Shown: piece by piece, positions 3,417 through 57,072 of the stretch
How positions within the stretch are numbered: the first letter of the stretch is position 1
Layout: each line of letters starts with the position of its first letter
IMG/VR virus record: IMGVR_UViG_3300011335_000652
Location: 1-61,791 of that record
Reading direction: 5' to 3' (one strand)
From: a virus
Lineage: Duplodnaviria; Caudoviricetes
Length of the DNA: 61,791 bases
Notes under the pieces: generated by a model
Database searches by the model: none
What the model was told of the DNA's origin: nothing
Seen by the model: the letters and a program-made list of their open reading frames with translations, nothing else
Program-made: the position numbers and the translations under genes

Positions 3417-5927
3417 TTAATAGTAGTCTGCTTTTTTCTGGCCGACCATGTACATAGCGTCCTCATCTTCGAAGTCAGATGGGAGTTTAATAAACCCACC
3501 TTGGCGAAATCTCATCAGGGCCATAACACTCGAATCGACAAGGTCATCATGGCTGGCAAACGGGAATCCCGCAATTTCTTCGATCACTTCTTCCGCCCAG
3601 CGAGTCTCCGGCGCCCATACGAGACCAGAGGAGATAATATCTGCAACAGAGTTGAGACGAGCCATCTTGTCCCCGGTCCCCCGGTGGGGGGTGTACTCCT
3701 GCACGGGGATACCCATGCGGCGCATCTCTTGATAGAGAGCGACACCAGAGCTCTTTTTTTCCACGATGAATGAGTCTGGCTCCCACGCCTTATACTGCTC
3801 GAGCGCCATCTTCTTCAGTTCAGGAAACTCGTACCGGTCCTTGATAGCATCAAGGAGGATGATGTTGTGGTTGTTGACCTCTTCGTTGAAGAAGACACCC
3901 CAGATTGTCAGCGCGGTAAAGTCGTTCCTTGTCTTTGTTTCTGCTGCGGAGTCGAGTGACATGATGATGTACTCACACTCTGGGGGCTCATCGTCTTCCC
4001 ACCGCATCCACCATTCACGTTTGACGATGGCCGCTTCTTCTGCCGTTGGCTGCTGCTGATACTGCGAGTTCCACTGAAACACAGGCATCGACGCCTTGGT
4101 GCGCAGCAGCGCCGTCATATCGAAGAACTCTGGCCACAAGGGCTTCTGCACGAAGCGCGTTACTTCCTCACCGTCTTCGTCGGTCTCAGTCACTTCGACA
4201 TCGAGAATCGCGGGGAACTCAATAATGTTGTACTGGTCGGCGCCCTCGTTCTTGACCATGTCTCGCGTAACCCGTCCGGTCAGGTCGTCGAGGTGCCATC
4301 TAGTATTGTGAGATACCAGCCTGTTGGCAATGAAGTTTTCCGTATCCTCAACTTGAAGGTCAAAAACTTCTTCATCGCCACTAGGTGTGATTGACTCAAT
4401 CCGCTCGAGTGTGAAGTCGGAAATACGCGGCAATGGCGGTAGCGGTACGCTCAGTTTTTGCATATCCAACTGCAAGGTTGCAGTCATTACAGAGGAGCGC
4501 CCGTACTTGCCCACCTTCATGGCAGTGGTCAACGCAAAGTTTGTTTCCCCAATGCGCTCGGGTATTACTACTCGATGGGGGCTGTTTGCAGATAGCACAA
4601 ACTCCGCCTTGCTCCGCCAAGCGGTAGTTATACTCCTCCATAGAGATACCATACCTGTACTTGAGCTTAGCTTCCCTATTCTTTTCAGGGCTACGACGCC
4701 CATAGCCATCCGCCCACCGCACTGCGTTGTAGTGACTAGCGCACTTGTTGCCGGCGTGTGCGGGTTCGTCGCACCCGTGGGTGTCGCATGTTTTTCCCTT
4801 ATACTTCCCGTGATATCCAAGTCCTCGGTAGGGCGCGTTTGGGTGCTTGCGATGCCATGATTCACGGGACCGGCAAGCTCCGCACTTGGACGGTCTGGTC
4901 TTAGCTCGCCCGGTACCGGTGCACCCTTCAGTGATACAAGGGAATCGCCCACCTTCAAGTCTCGTACTCGTGTCCATACAAGCGCTCCTGTTTCGGTCCG
5001 GACGAGGAACGGATGTCGCTCGTTAGCCTTCACCGTATGTGAGGTTGTCGTAATTGTAAATACGGAATCTATACCATTTGACCGGTGATTCAAGACTTTT
5101 TGGTTGGTTAACACCCCATCACGATAAGATGCGACCATATCCCCGGGGCGAATATCACGTAGCGGAGTTTCAGTCCCATCAGGGCGCAACACGGGAGTAT
5201 CCCCCGTCATACACTGTACGATAGCTACGCGCCCCCCGGGCATCAAACGTGTCCGGGCCCCGAAGGTGAACCACTCGTATGCTTTCTGGAACACTTCAAA
5301 GTTTCCGTTGATGACGTCCTGTTCCGAGTGAGGGTCATCGACCAGCAGGAGGTCAGCACCGCGACCAGCGATTGACGAGCCGATACCACAAGCGAAGTAC
5401 TCACCGCCAAAGTTTGTGTTCCACCGGCCAGCAGACTTACTGTCTGTAGCCAAGCTGACATTTGGAAACAGTGCATGATACGCCTCCTCGGAGAGGAGGT
5501 TACGAACCTTTCGACCAAAATCCACCGCGAGGTCCGTGGTATGCGACACCATCATAACCTTCTTGTCCGGATTCCGCCCGAGGAACCATGCGGGGAAATA
5601 GATTGACACAAGCTGGCTCTTACCATGACGGGGCGGGATGTTCACGCAGATCCGGTCTTCGCCATCCTCGGCGTCGGGCCCCCGCTCAATCGCCATCAGC
5701 TGATCAGCCAAGATTCTGTGGTGCCGGCCAACCTTGTAGTCAGGCTGCATGTATTTACAGAACTCAATCAAGTCATCCCGGGCAGCATCCAGCTGCTTTC
5801 GGCGCTCTAACTCCTCGAGCTGCGTTGTGATAGCAACTACCTCCGCCTCAGAGAGGCGGTCTAGATTCTGCAGGAGAAGATTAAGTTCCTCTTCACTGAA
5901 CCCGAGGTCGAGCGAGGTGTTAGCCAT
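3417..5927 (-). CDS. terL: Terminase large subunit, intein-containing
   Basis: PPRHGKS Walker A, LLLVDDPH Walker B, TRWH motif, C-terminal RNase H-like nuclease (SLDSA...HDDLVD). Confidence 0.95.
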   Translation of the reverse strand: MANTSLDLGFSEEELNLLLQNLDRLSEAEVVAITTQLEELERRKQLDAARDDLIEFCKYMQPDYKVGRHHRILADQLMAIERGPDAEDGEDRICVNIPPRHGKSQLVSIYFPAWFLGRNPDKKVMMVSHTTDLAVDFGRKVRNLLSEEAYHALFPNVSLATDSKSAGRWNTNFGGEYFACGIGSSIAGRGADLLLVDDPHSEQDVINGNFEVFQKAYEWFTFGARTRLMPGGRVAIVQCMTGDTPVLRPDGTETPLRDIRPGDMVASYRDGVLTNQKVLNHRSNGIDSVFTITTTSHTVKANERHPFLVRTETGALVWTRVRDLKVGDSLVSLKGAPVPGELRPDRPSAELAGPVNHGIASTQTRPTEDLDITGSIREKHATPTGATNPHTPATSALVTTTQCGGRMAMGVVALKRIGKLSSSTGMVSLWRSITTAWRSKAEFVLSANSPHRVVIPERIGETNFALTTAMKVGKYGRSSVMTATLQLDMQKLSVPLPPLPRISDFTLERIESITPSGDEEVFDLQVEDTENFIANRLVSHNTRWHLDDLTGRVTRDMVKNEGADQYNIIEFPAILDVEVTETDEDGEEVTRFVQKPLWPEFFDMTALLRTKASMPVFQWNSQYQQQPTAEEAAIVKREWWMRWEDDEPPECEYIIMSLDSAAETKTRNDFTALTIWGVFFNEEVNNHNIILLDAIKDRYEFPELKKMALEQYKAWEPDSFIVEKKSSGVALYQEMRRMGIPVQEYTPHRGTGDKMARLNSVADIISSGLVWAPETRWAEEVIEEIAGFPFASHDDLVDSSVMALMRFRQGGFIKLPSDFEDEDAMYMVGQKKADYY
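4305..5213 (-). mobile_element. Intein (303 aa) in terL
   Basis: Q|CMTGDT N-terminus, ANERHPFL block B, VFDLQVEDTENFIANRLVSHN|T C-terminus; removal restores IVQ-TRWH. Confidence 0.93.
4396..4977 (-). CDS. Endonuclease VII-family homing endonuclease overprinted in the +2 frame inside the intein
   Basis: YGISMEEY...QGGVCAIC...LCVDHCH...VRALLCNDCN motif; own SD AGGAG (4985-4989) 7 nt before ATG. Confidence 0.88.
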   Translation of the reverse strand: MDTSTRLEGGRFPCITEGCTGTGRAKTRPSKCGACRSRESWHRKHPNAPYRGLGYHGKYKGKTCDTHGCDEPAHAGNKCASHYNAVRWADGYGRRSPEKNREAKLKYRYGISMEEYNYRLAEQGGVCAICKQPPSSSNTRAHWGNKLCVDHCHEGGQVRALLCNDCNLAVGYAKTERTATAIAAYFRLHTRAD

Positions 5928-17748: not shown

Positions 17749-18039
17749 ATGGCTATGACACCCGAGGTCAAGGTTAAACGCGCCGTTGTGCAGCAACTCA
17801 AGGCATTGGGGGCATACTACTTCTATCCTGTCACTGGCGGGTTTGGGGGTAGCGGCGTTCCCGATATCGTGGGTTGCTACAACGGCCTGTTCTTTGGCAT
17901 CGAGTGCAAAGCTGGCAGCAACAAACCAACGGCGCTGCAACAAAAGAACCTGTCCGACATCAAAGCGTCGGGCGGGATCGCCTTAGTTATAAACGAGTCC
18001 AACGTGAACTCTGTTACCGAAGAACTCAATAGGAGATAA
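17749..18039 (+). CDS. VRR-NUC domain nuclease (Holliday junction resolvase-like)
   Basis: TPE.KVK...GVPDI...GIECKA...PTALQ motif. Confidence 0.85.
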   Translation: MAMTPEVKVKRAVVQQLKALGAYYFYPVTGGFGGSGVPDIVGCYNGLFFGIECKAGSNKPTALQQKNLSDIKASGGIALVINESNVNSVTEELNRR

Positions 18040-18041
18040 AA

Positions 18042-18599
18042 GTGAACGACACACAATGGGTTACACTTACTATCAATAATGCAATCCCTTCGGGGGCTGC
18101 GTTTGGTTACGATCAGATCACGGGCGCATCCTGCTTTATCCCTGCAAGCGTGATGTTTAGCACGGGCGCGCAGATCGGGGAGATGGTTGAGGTCCTGCTG
18201 ATCGACAACCCAAATCTCGCTGCTCGTGCGCGGACCCCCTACATGGTGCAGCACCTACGGAAAGCCTCTCGTCAAGCATCCCCTATCCTCACCCCGCGCA
18301 CCGCACCAATCGTGACGCCTACCCGCCCACCAACAGACCTTGCGGAGTTTGTTCGCACCTGTCTGCACTCTGGCGGGGTGTGGACAATTACCGATATTCT
18401 TGCTGAAGCCGACGTATCCGTATCGTCTGAAGATCCGCGCGCTCAGTATATCATATCGTCAACTTTGCGGACGATGTTTGCAAACAACGAGTGTGCGATG
18501 TGGACTATGTATACGAACGGGGACGCGACCATCCCACAGCGGACTTGGTTTAGCTGCTTCCCCCAAAACGTAGATGTTGCTGAGTGGGAGGGAGAGTAA
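18042..18599 (+). CDS. Hypothetical protein
   Basis: 185 aa; SD AGGAG. Confidence 0.65.
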   Translation: MNDTQWVTLTINNAIPSGAAFGYDQITGASCFIPASVMFSTGAQIGEMVEVLLIDNPNLAARARTPYMVQHLRKASRQASPILTPRTAPIVTPTRPPTDLAEFVRTCLHSGGVWTITDILAEADVSVSSEDPRAQYIISSTLRTMFANNECAMWTMYTNGDATIPQRTWFSCFPQNVDVAEWEGE

Positions 18600-18605
18600 C
18601 TAGCG

Positions 18606-19430
18606 ATGGATAACGAACTGACAGCAAAACAGGGCGGCGTAAAGTTTGACCAAGACAAACCATGCTATGACCTGATCCCGCCCGAGGTCGAAGAAGCCAT
18701 GGCGCAAGTTCTGACCTACGGGGCGAAAAAATACACAACGGAGGTGCAGAACGAATGGGACGCCCTTCTATATGCCCAGTGTGCAACGGCGCTGCAGGTA
18801 GCTACGCCAAAGGGAAATGTCGTAGGTGTTACGAGAAACACCTACGAGAGTCCAATCCCGATTTTGCAGAACGCCAACGTGAAAATCGAAGGGCTTGGGA
18901 GCGTAAAAACCCAGACAAGGTCGCTAAGCTGGCAGAGCGTAGACGCACTGATCCAGCAGCACGTAGCCGAGACGCTAAAACCAAGCGGGACTCCCGCCTT
19001 GCGCAATATGGACTTACCGAAACCACCTATGCCGCACTATGCGCTGAAGGATGCGCAATCTGTGGCGCCACCAAACACCTGCACATTGACCATTGTCACA
19101 AGTCAGGGGAGTTTAGAGGTATACTTTGCTCCCGATGCAATAATGGACTTGGGTTTTTGGACGATTGTGTGGAGGGGCTTGAACGAGCACTTCGGTATCT
19201 CAAGGCCGCAGAACAAAAGCGGCGAACGTAATTGGGAGCAGGGTATGGATTGGGGCCGTGTCTACGCCGCGATGCGGCGGCATATGGGCGCATGGTGGGG
19301 CGGAGAAGATACTGACCCCGAAAGCGGTATGACGCACTTGTGGCACGCCGCTGCGTGTATTGCGTTCCTTGTAGCGTTTGAGGCGCAAGGCGGGGGAAAC
19401 GACGACAGACCAAAAAGGAAGAAGAAATGA
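18606..19430 (+). CDS. dATP/dGTP diphosphohydrolase-domain (DUF5664-type) protein with a 162-aa in-frame insertion
   Basis: GVKFDQDKP.YDLIP...LTYGAKKY | insertion | GERNWEQGM...AMRRH...DPESGMTHLWHAAAC. Confidence 0.85.
   Translation: MDNELTAKQGGVKFDQDKPCYDLIPPEVEEAMAQVLTYGAKKYTTEVQNEWDALLYAQCATALQVATPKGNVVGVTRNTYESPIPILQNANVKIEGLGSVKTQTRSLSWQSVDALIQQHVAETLKPSGTPALRNMDLPKPPMPHYALKDAQSVAPPNTCTLTIVTSQGSLEVYFAPDAIMDLGFWTIVWRGLNEHFGISRPQNKSGERNWEQGMDWGRVYAAMRRHMGAWWGGEDTDPESGMTHLWHAAACIAFLVAFEAQGGGNDDRPKRKKK
18735..19220 (+). mobile_element. Frame-preserving 486-nt endonuclease insertion (no intein or intron features)
   Basis: Splits the normally contiguous KKY-GERNW motif; consists of 20 nt of leader with SD plus the endonuclease ORF. 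Boundaries approximate to a few nt. Confidence 0.75.
18755..19231 (+). CDS. Endonuclease VII-family homing endonuclease overprinted in the +2 frame
   Basis: YGLTETTY...CAICG...LHIDHCH..G.FRGILCSRCNNGLG; SD GGAGG at 18740-18744. Confidence 0.88.
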   Translation: MGRPSICPVCNGAAGSYAKGKCRRCYEKHLRESNPDFAERQRENRRAWERKNPDKVAKLAERRRTDPAARSRDAKTKRDSRLAQYGLTETTYAALCAEGCAICGATKHLHIDHCHKSGEFRGILCSRCNNGLGFLDDCVEGLERALRYLKAAEQKRRT

Positions 19431-19615
19431 GTATTACGCCAAACGAGCGCGAGGTCGTCGATCTGGAGATCGACCTGTTTGATGCTTACACAAAGATCGA
19501 CTACCTTGAAAATGTCCTGAAGCGGATCGTCGCTTCAGTAACCCCAAACAGCAACGCCACCGTAAAGCGGATGGTCGCTATCGCCAAGGAGGGCTTAGAG
19601 AATGCCGAAGATTGA
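19427..19615 (+). CDS. Hypothetical protein
   Basis: ATGA overlap; 62 aa. Confidence 0.6.
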   Translation: MSITPNEREVVDLEIDLFDAYTKIDYLENVLKRIVASVTPNSNATVKRMVAIAKEGLENAED

Positions 19616-19862
19616 TCTACACGAACTCGTTAACCTACCCTACGGGGAGGCCAATAAACGGCTCGAAGAGGCCGGCCACTACCGAGATGCGGACATAAAG
19701 GAGTATACTGTAAAGGTTACGGGCTACTACGAACCAGAAAGATACACAGAGACGGTTACCGTGCAAGCGGTAAACGAAGACCACGCATTTGAGCGGGCCG
19801 AAAAGCTGGTGGACTTCGACGTGATCGTGGCGTGTGAGATTGTAGAGGGAGAAGAAGAATGA
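19602..19862 (+). CDS. Hypothetical protein
   Basis: 86 aa; SD GGAGG. Confidence 0.6.
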   Translation: MPKIDLHELVNLPYGEANKRLEEAGHYRDADIKEYTVKVTGYYEPERYTETVTVQAVNEDHAFERAEKLVDFDVIVACEIVEGEEE

Positions 19863-20020
19863 GTGAGGAGGGTAGAGACGTCCTTGGCGTCATGGCAGGA
19901 GTGGCAATTATGCTTTGCAGCATAGTTTGGTTTCTCAGCCCAAGCCCGATGCAGCAGTGCATCAAGGCAGGCTACGAATGGCGCGGCGGTGACTGCGTGA
20001 TGGGGGTGACATATGAGTGA
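19859..20020 (+). CDS. Small membrane protein (53 aa)
   Basis: Below the ORF-track cutoff; ATGA overlap; hydrophobic VLGVMAGVAIMLCSIVWF segment. Confidence 0.55.
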   Translation: MSEEGRDVLGVMAGVAIMLCSIVWFLSPSPMQQCIKAGYEWRGGDCVMGVTYE

Positions 20021-56460: not shown

Positions 56461-57072
56461 TTATTCGTCTGTAAATGGGGTCTTCTGCAGGTACTCTATA
56501 GCCGCCTGAAGGGTAACCGGGTTGTCGTTAAAAAAACCTAGTGCCCGATTACACGCGTTGCATAAAAGCCCGCGCACAACCTTTGTAGTATGGCAGTGGT
56601 CCACCGCAAGGTTCGCATACCTCTGGCTTTTGTCCCCCTCTGATTGCTTGCAGATGGCGCACACACCGCCTTGCGCAGTGTACATATTCTCCCAATCCGT
56701 AAGCGTTATCCCAAACGCTCGTTTAAGGTGCGTATTTTTGACGTTTCTTGGTCTCCGTTTTCGATACTCCCGCATGTATTCGGCCCGTTGCGCGTGCGTA
56801 TTTTTAACGTTACTGCCGGGGGCGTACTTTGTATCCCAGAAAAAATTGTCTGGGCCCATCGGAGCGTCTATCTCCTTGCGCCGTAGCCTGTGGGCATCGG
56901 ATGGCCTATCACCAACCCCCGCAACGAACGCCCAGAAGTCACCCGCCCACGCGGGAACCATACCATATTTATTCCGGTCTTTATGCCATCCCCAGAGGCC
57001 GTATAGAGGGTGTTTTTCCCGTGTACCCCAATCTTCAGGGCGCTTGGCACTTTTAAGTATAGGTCTCTCCAT
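56461..57072 (-). CDS. Free-standing endonuclease VII-family homing endonuclease downstream of the MCP gene
   Basis: FGITLTDW...QGGVCAIC...LAVDHCH...VRGLLCNACNRALG. Confidence 0.85.
   Translation of the reverse strand: MERPILKSAKRPEDWGTREKHPLYGLWGWHKDRNKYGMVPAWAGDFWAFVAGVGDRPSDAHRLRRKEIDAPMGPDNFFWDTKYAPGSNVKNTHAQRAEYMREYRKRRPRNVKNTHLKRAFGITLTDWENMYTAQGGVCAICKQSEGDKSQRYANLAVDHCHTTKVVRGLLCNACNRALGFFNDNPVTLQAAIEYLQKTPFTDE

Follow-up and report, generated by a model that had tools for sequence, protein, structure and literature searches.

A putative Endonuclease VII-family homing endonuclease gene overprinted out of frame in a phage MazZ-like pyrophosphohydrolase gene and probably read through without splicing

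The window analysed here is a complete 61,791-bp virus record (IMGVR_UViG_3300011335_000652; Duplodnaviria, Caudoviricetes), in which a gene for a MazZ-like dNTP pyrophosphohydrolase is interrupted by an open reading frame (ORF) of the Endonuclease VII family lying in a different frame. The reading we favour, to which we give a probability of roughly 0.7, is that this ORF is a 'hidden' homing endonuclease gene (HEG) of the ShiLan type, overprinted in its own target gene, and that the host frame would be read through the insert, which would be kept as an extra loop with no splicing involved. Nested copies of this endonuclease never carry a stop codon in the host frame and free-standing relatives always do, which provides direct comparative evidence of read-through. 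The features concerned are the following.

18606..19430, + strand: interrupted host ORF, 274 aa, PF18909 dGTP_diPhyd_N / MazZ-like all-alpha NTP pyrophosphohydrolase, with no stop through the insert
18606..18734, + strand: host N-terminal segment, residues 1-43, ending in ..YGAKKY (Pfam profile ~1-32)
18735..19220, + strand: insert of 486 nt, host residues 44-205 (162 residues), with no family match and missing from uninterrupted homologs
18740..18744, + strand: GGAGG Shine-Dalgarno-like motif, 10 nt 5' of the endonuclease ATG
18755..19231, + strand: 158-aa ORF of a putative homing endonuclease, Endonuclease VII family (His-Me/HNH type), lying in host frame +2
19221..19430, + strand: host C-terminal segment, residues 206-274, GERNWEQGM.. 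(Pfam profile 33-99)

The host ORF matches PF18909 with 104.3 bits against a cut-off of 27, and the whole domain is covered in two pieces, profile positions 1-32 and 33-99, the latter corresponding to residues 202-268. PHROG 801, 'dATP/dGTP pyrophosphohydrolase', matches the same ORF at 9.3e-37. Alignment with uninterrupted homologs places the insertion point exactly between GAxKY and G[ED]RNW. The endonuclease ATG lies 20 nt into the insert, and these 20 nt are the only part of the insert outside the endonuclease ORF. At the other edge the TAA of the endonuclease falls in the host codons CGT AAT, and the last 11 nt of its ORF overlap the host C-terminal segment; in the relatives, unlike in the window copy, the endonuclease stop lies within the insert. 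The closest relatives keep a purine-rich stretch at the position of the GGAGG, and the Shine-Dalgarno-like motif and the ATG are conserved among them. As a check on the assembly, both insert junctions are bridged without differences by DNA contigs of other sequencing runs (four DNA runs).

An earlier note, made from the DNA letters alone, had described the splitting of the YGAKKY-GERNW motif by 486 nt (162 codons, no stop), a dATP/dGTP diphosphohydrolase as host, an EndoVII ORF behind a 20-nt leader with GGAGG, and a TAA borrowed from the downstream host codons. All of this is borne out by the ORF, the homolog alignment, the family matches and the window sequence. The coordinates that it gave for the insertion, 18735-19231, hold for the start only, since the stop codon of the endonuclease runs to 19231 and the insert ends at 19220. 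The alignment with uninterrupted homologs that it proposed shows a clean insert, the middle segment being missing from them: of the top 80 loci for the host gene in viral contigs, 74 have the two halves adjacent, while three carry the insert in the same frame relation and three hold the C half only.

The first ~10 host-frame residues of the insert (TTEVQNEWDA, 18735..18764) match Pfam profile positions 33-43, and these same positions are occupied equally by the true downstream segment GERNWEQGMD. As regards the function of the host enzyme, no match to the PurZ-type adenylosuccinate synthetase family PF00709 was found in the complete 61.8-kb genome; because the genome is without such a gene, a Z-genome role (2-aminoadenine with PurZ) should not be assumed from the Pfam name of the MazZ-like gene, which would then act outside such a pathway.

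The 158-aa ORF matches PF02945 (Endonuclease_7) with an E value of 9.7e-17 and 61.1 bits against a cut-off of 23.6, and the PHROG 'endonuclease VII' at 7.5e-31. Residues D112, H113, C114, H115, C125, C128 and N129 are invariant among its relatives, so that the D-H-C-H ... C..C-N core is kept, which we take to have the catalytic role in the Endonuclease_7 family. Its best matches in deposited phages are free-standing 'endonuclease VII' genes of at most 42% identity.

Relatives of the endonuclease were gathered from metagenome and viral contigs by a search with the endonuclease alignment, and since the endonuclease served as the query the sample is blind to the status of the host frame. In what follows +1 denotes the host frame relative to the endonuclease ORF, the HEG being -1/+2 relative to the host. 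No stop was found in the +1 frame across the endonuclease ORF in 28 of 59 rows, which reduce to 23 distinct full-length nested relatives once duplicates (L127, L130, L095 and L128) and the truncated L132 are removed. All 23, of which 21 lie in PF18909 hosts and 2 in a helicase, have 0 host-frame stops, although their endonuclease identity to the window copy falls to ~42%. Their +2 frame holds 5-24 stops, except in L086 (1) and L103 (0), whose endonuclease ORF is shortened. By contrast, +1 holds 3-14 stops in each of the 15 free-standing relatives analysed; another 16 non-nested rows, set aside as partial hits, duplicates or cases with unclear ORF limits, have 1-33.

Two estimates of what would be expected by chance are available. 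Over 35 gene-like ORFs of the window, the density of +1-frame stops is 0.041 per codon and the longest stop-free run is 115 codons, and the probability of 162 stop-free codons is ~1.2e-3. Shuffling of synonymous codons gives 0.7-3.9 expected stops in the nested genes, against 0 observed, and in the free-standing genes the observed stops are about as many as expected. The insertion point was also located with a hidden Markov model (HMM) made from 87 host proteins that carry no insert. Apart from the window, 18 distinct loci have the endonuclease flanked by the two host halves at one and the same profile position (90/91), with no stop over the whole stretch; in L096 and L101 the C half alone was detected, and contig ends truncate L128 and L132. 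On these sequence comparisons the stop-free host frame is not due to chance, and this implies that the host frame is under selection to stay open, i.e. that ribosomes would read through the insert.

As the host frame has remained open in all nested relatives, ribosomes would read through, which argues against the insert being removed or skipped at the level of the RNA or the ribosome, whether by a cryptic self-splicing intron overlapping the endonuclease ORF or by long-range bypassing. We regard such a route as highly improbable: nothing would then hold the frame open in all 23 nested relatives as compared with the 3-14 stops of the free-standing ones, Rfam, searched with 18300..19700, returns nothing at E<=10, the endonuclease ORF leaves just 20 nt of the insert free, and the take-off site has no stop codon such as that of T4 gene 60. 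What can be said for it is that HNH ORFs are common in group I introns and that the first ~10 host-frame residues of the insert weakly resemble the downstream exon (profile 33-43 on both sides). The ShiLan authors discuss such exon mimicry as intron-like (PMC11855218).

Removal after translation, by non-canonical protein splicing or by proteolytic excision with the halves religated or reassociating, fits the open host frame as well as retention does, and the first residue of the insert is often Thr or Ser. It is nevertheless unlikely, as Pfam finds no Hint/intein domain (PF14890) in the 274-aa product, though it finds one in the terminase of the same phage. The junctions vary, with T, D, A, G, K or S at the start and S, T, V, A or P before an invariant Gly; there is neither a His-Asn pair nor a Cys, Ser or Thr at +1, and the host-frame sequence of the insert evolves almost freely. 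These in silico results agree with what the earlier note had stated, namely that the insert lacks intein chemistry, room for a group I/II ribozyme core and a stop codon at the site as in T4 gene 60. That note had allowed for the loop being tolerated, removed or bypassed. Tolerance is favoured by the open frame in all nested relatives, which speaks against bypassing or RNA splicing, and removal by an unknown route is not needed.

The two frames differ in the constraint that they show. In the nested genes the entropy by HEG codon position is highest at position 3 (1.43), followed by position 1 (1.05) and position 2 (0.82), a pattern which indicates that the endonuclease frame is the one under amino-acid constraint. 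In one relative (L007), the host-frame peptide of the insert has 35% identity to that of the window against 63% for the endonuclease. A premature stop in the HEG frame is found at codon 50 in L086 (580-1060) and at codon 20 in L103 (1060-1600), with the host frame fully open; in these two the endonuclease may be decaying while its host gene can still be read, or the stops may come from errors of sequencing. A HEG stop with an open host frame is the pattern expected if the parasite decays while the host must stay readable.

In the host halves, 21 residues are invariant over 120 interrupted and uninterrupted proteins, and interrupted alleles with as little as ~37% identity retain the full set, before and after the insert, which indicates that the host enzyme is under purifying selection in these alleles. 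The question raised by the earlier note, whether the host gene is dead, is thus answered in the negative as far as the sequence goes. An inactive host enzyme, or one working as fragments, in which the open frame would serve some other end (prevention of premature termination and of polarity on downstream genes, for example), seems to us a distinctly unlikely alternative. The family may be dispensable and one relative (L111, described below) has a truly split host gene, but the retention of the 21 residues speaks against it, and the region would be covered anyway by ribosomes on the endonuclease frame. An in-frame ATG (M214) follows a GGGAG-like stretch just past the insert; M214 is, however, conserved in uninterrupted proteins and is therefore no mark of a start codon. 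For the same reason, an internal start at M214 yielding a separate C-terminal fragment was considered and rejected.

In the favoured reading, the HEG would have inserted at the conserved KY/GERNW site of the pyrophosphohydrolase gene, with no surrounding intron or intein. It would be translated by internal initiation from its own GGAGG and ATG, and ribosomes in the host frame would read straight through to give the 274-aa enzyme, in which the two host halves would still fold and dimerise. At the junction of helix 1 and helix 2 the 162 overprinted residues would protrude as an additional loop or stalk, for the most part under little constraint. In a co-infecting phage whose allele lacks the insert, the endonuclease would cut that allele at the insertion site or close to it, and its gene would be copied in by repair (homing), the insertion destroying the cleavage site in the HEG's own genome. 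A programmed frameshift fusing the host N-terminus to the endonuclease was also considered and is not needed, the Shine-Dalgarno motif and the ATG being conserved in close relatives.

Structure prediction, one of the checks proposed in the earlier note, gives well-defined host parts and a poorly defined middle of the insert in two models. In the AlphaFold2 model of the 274-aa protein (120 sequences), the mean predicted local distance difference test (pLDDT) is 78, with 93-98 for the host parts and values below 50 for segments 89-107 and 126-153. In that of a very divergent interrupted protein (L099, 324 aa, 38 sequences), the host parts reach 89-98 and the insert ends 71-91, and residues 99-214 are predicted below 50 save one residue. 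A homodimer model scored 0.56 against 0.01 for the best control, with runs agreeing in at least 89% of contacts and a partner pLDDT of at least 72; of proteins solved as pairs, 20 of 30 attained the mark applied, as did 1 of 23 solved as single chains. MazG-like dimers have already been solved, so this pass may reflect likeness only. The confident interface residues all fall in 17-40 and 207-271 and none in the insert, and the models thus suggest that the host fold and the dimer interface stay clear of the insert. A sequence search of the PDB with the 274-aa protein gave 0 matches at E<=1.

Several points weigh against the read-through reading. Insert residues 44-88 are predicted with a pLDDT of ~85 and residues 157-200 with ~90, and a 'junk loop' does not predict such confidence; in all, ~95 of the 162 insert residues, at pLDDT 84-93, are predicted to form a small sheet and helices from both insert ends. 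This high confidence may be an artefact of the conservation imposed by the endonuclease frame. The interrupted form was found in no deposited phage genome, 0 of 480 matching records having one place that covers at least 80% of the ORF. No empty allele was found among the contigs of the four DNA runs, which hold identical pieces and no joint and are uninformative on empty alleles or splicing. In L111 (1300-2850) the host gene is truly split, the N part stopping exactly at the insertion site and the C part lying in another frame, so covalent continuity of the host is not always kept. In L111 the endonuclease is continued by an additional ORF, in which there is a P-loop-like GxxxxGK motif, and the locus gives the impression of either a dead gene or a genuinely divided 'genes in pieces' arrangement. 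The nested loci also share ancestry, because of which the 23 nested relatives are not 23 independent events, although there are at least two independent hosts as well as an intein case in the window. Finally, the case for homing is drawn from family membership and from distribution, where the evidence is indirect and consists of the sporadic presence of the insert and of free-standing relatives beside intact targets.

The confident part of the insert bears on the possibility of true dual coding, in which the host-frame insert would be a selected, folded domain with a role of its own and not a tolerated spacer. Besides the pLDDT of 84-93 for ~95 of 162 residues, and of 71-91 at both ends of the very divergent L099 insert, it can draw on the identity at fourfold third positions, which in three regions is 0.31, 0.33 and 0.40 for nested pairs and 0.25, 0.24 and 0.29 for free-standing pairs. 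The excess is, however, small and similar in predicted-ordered and predicted-disordered parts (ratios 1.23, 1.39 and 1.35), resembles the effect of shared ancestry or of stop avoidance, and lends no support to a selected domain. The confident segments coincide with the conserved motifs of the HEG, so that column conservation may drive the pLDDT; Foldseek of the model against the PDB gives nothing at E<=0.001 (best 0.14), an uninformative search in which the predicted fold of the insert met no known counterpart, and the host-frame identity is as low as 35% where the HEG identity is 63%. We consider dual coding improbable. If true, it would mean that ~480 nt are functional in both frames and that a homing endonuclease has driven the de novo birth of a domain, made of a stalk from both insert ends and a disordered loop, under selection of its own.

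The interrupted form recurs in clustered protein collections. In one clustered at 90%, the 274-aa ORF is matched over 93-100% of its length by 31 other proteins, which are 233-330 aa long and 35-83% identical to it; among the matches listed, 32 of 120 are full-span, the window's own included. A library clustered at 50% yields 14,861 hits to the host family at E<=0.001. Of its top 150, 36 match the ORF from end to end in a single stretch and are 263-393 aa long, which makes at least 36 interrupted open clusters. A distant-mode DNA search of deposited phages with 18000..20000 returned no match.

Endonuclease relatives are also found out of frame in a second host gene. In L134 (449-2458) and L138 (3-1295) they lie between the two lobes of an SNF2/Helicase_C-type helicase, with 0 host-frame stops; the host-frame insert is rich in T, S, N and K and Pfam detects no intein in it. 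These helicase-nested copies point to the same strategy in a second host gene.

Ten loci carry a free-standing endonuclease beside an intact host gene, directly downstream of it in L092, L104, L110, L133, L125 and L107 and directly upstream in L106, L119, L131 and L117. Such loci suggest that the nested form had its origin in an 'intronless homing' gene which stood free beside its target and may have moved into it. In L092 (287-1290), the intact host gene and the free-standing endonuclease are followed by a partial duplicate of the 3' part of the host gene (HMM positions 101-143), which may be the trace of a homing or recombination event.

The window contains two other Endonuclease_7 genes, one of them nested in an intein.

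3417..5927, - strand: terminase large subunit with intein, 836 aa (intein PF14890, E 2.6e-16)
4396..4977, - strand: second Endonuclease_7 ORF, 193 aa, out of frame within the terminase intein, offset likewise +2
56461..57072, - strand: third Endonuclease_7 gene, 203 aa, free-standing between a 193-aa ORF and a 301-aa ORF (presumed capsid-like)

The intein frame is open across the terminase-nested endonuclease, with 0 stops in +1 and 18 in +2, and this case agrees with the inteins with a 'frame 3 endonuclease VII-like HEN' (bioRxiv 10.1101/2025.01.02.630785). The third copy shares 21-25% identity with the other two. The three copies provide a control within the window, as the two nested ones have 0 host-frame stops each and the free-standing third has 4 in +1.

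Among known systems, bypassing in T4 gene 60 skips 50 nt after a stop codon. The present case resembles that cassette in being an interruption of a phage coding sequence that is associated with a mobile element and would not be removed from the mRNA; it differs in that 486 nt are stop-free and conserved as such, which suggests that ribosomes read the insert instead of skipping it. For free-standing homing endonucleases and 'genes in pieces', the examples are the T4 seg/mob genes and mobE, which splits nrdA in Aeromonas phage Aeh1; a further case of 'genes in pieces' is reportedly that of split inteins in fractured genes. Here too the putative HEG targets a conserved phage gene of nucleotide metabolism, relatives stand beside the intact target and, in L111, the gene is split, but the host gene of the window is one continuous reading frame through the HEG and not two ORFs. 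Inteins with a frame-3 EndoVII-like ORF share the overprinting on a host-frame polypeptide that must stay open; in these, however, the overprinted part lies inside a Hint domain and is spliced out, whereas no splicing domain is present here. A cyanobacterial dnaX intein case appears in a further preprint (bioRxiv 10.64898/2026.09.14.751524).

The closest system is the ShiLan domain, or Pacc40 gp60, for which Arsenault, Gosselin and Gogarten described out-of-frame HNH insertions in DNA methylase genes of actinobacteriophages in February 2025 (PMC11855218). According to that article, the HNH ORF occupies frame 3, with its start 18 bp inside the insert and its TAA in the last four bases. Its translation is treated there as an open question, the start being GTG with no ribosome-binding site (RBS), and leaderless initiation is proposed. 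Both systems have an insert between conserved codons of a phage gene whose frame is without stops, and a frame-3 endonuclease ORF that starts 18-20 nt into the insert and stops at its 3' edge. Neither has intein motifs or a detectable intron, the insert is predicted to loop out, and its start resembles the downstream segment, weakly so in the present case. Related endonucleases are also free-standing beside uninterrupted hosts in both cases, those of ShiLan being upstream of intact methylases. The differences are that the host here is a PF18909 pyrophosphohydrolase and not a methylase, that the phages are uncultured aquatic or metagenomic ones and not Mycobacterium phages, and that the endonuclease is an Endonuclease_7 with ATG and GGAGG, the two being likened by architecture and not by endonuclease sequence. 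The sample is also far deeper here, with the contrast in stops between nested and free-standing copies.

The novelty implied by the earlier note was thus overstated, as the same architecture is described in PMC11855218. A literature search found no report of a homing endonuclease inside a MazG/MazZ-type gene, though the supplements of these papers may hold further host genes. While the architecture was already published in 2025, the host gene, the phage group, the canonical RBS and the deep comparative sample are new. The present case extends out-of-frame, splice-free HEG insertion beyond actinophage methylases to a small nucleotide-metabolism enzyme and a helicase. With a helical host enzyme of ~112 residues, an easy assay and a canonical RBS, it also makes a convenient test system, which bears on the retention of inserts, on the survival of HEGs without a splicing element and on overprinting as a source of protein segments.

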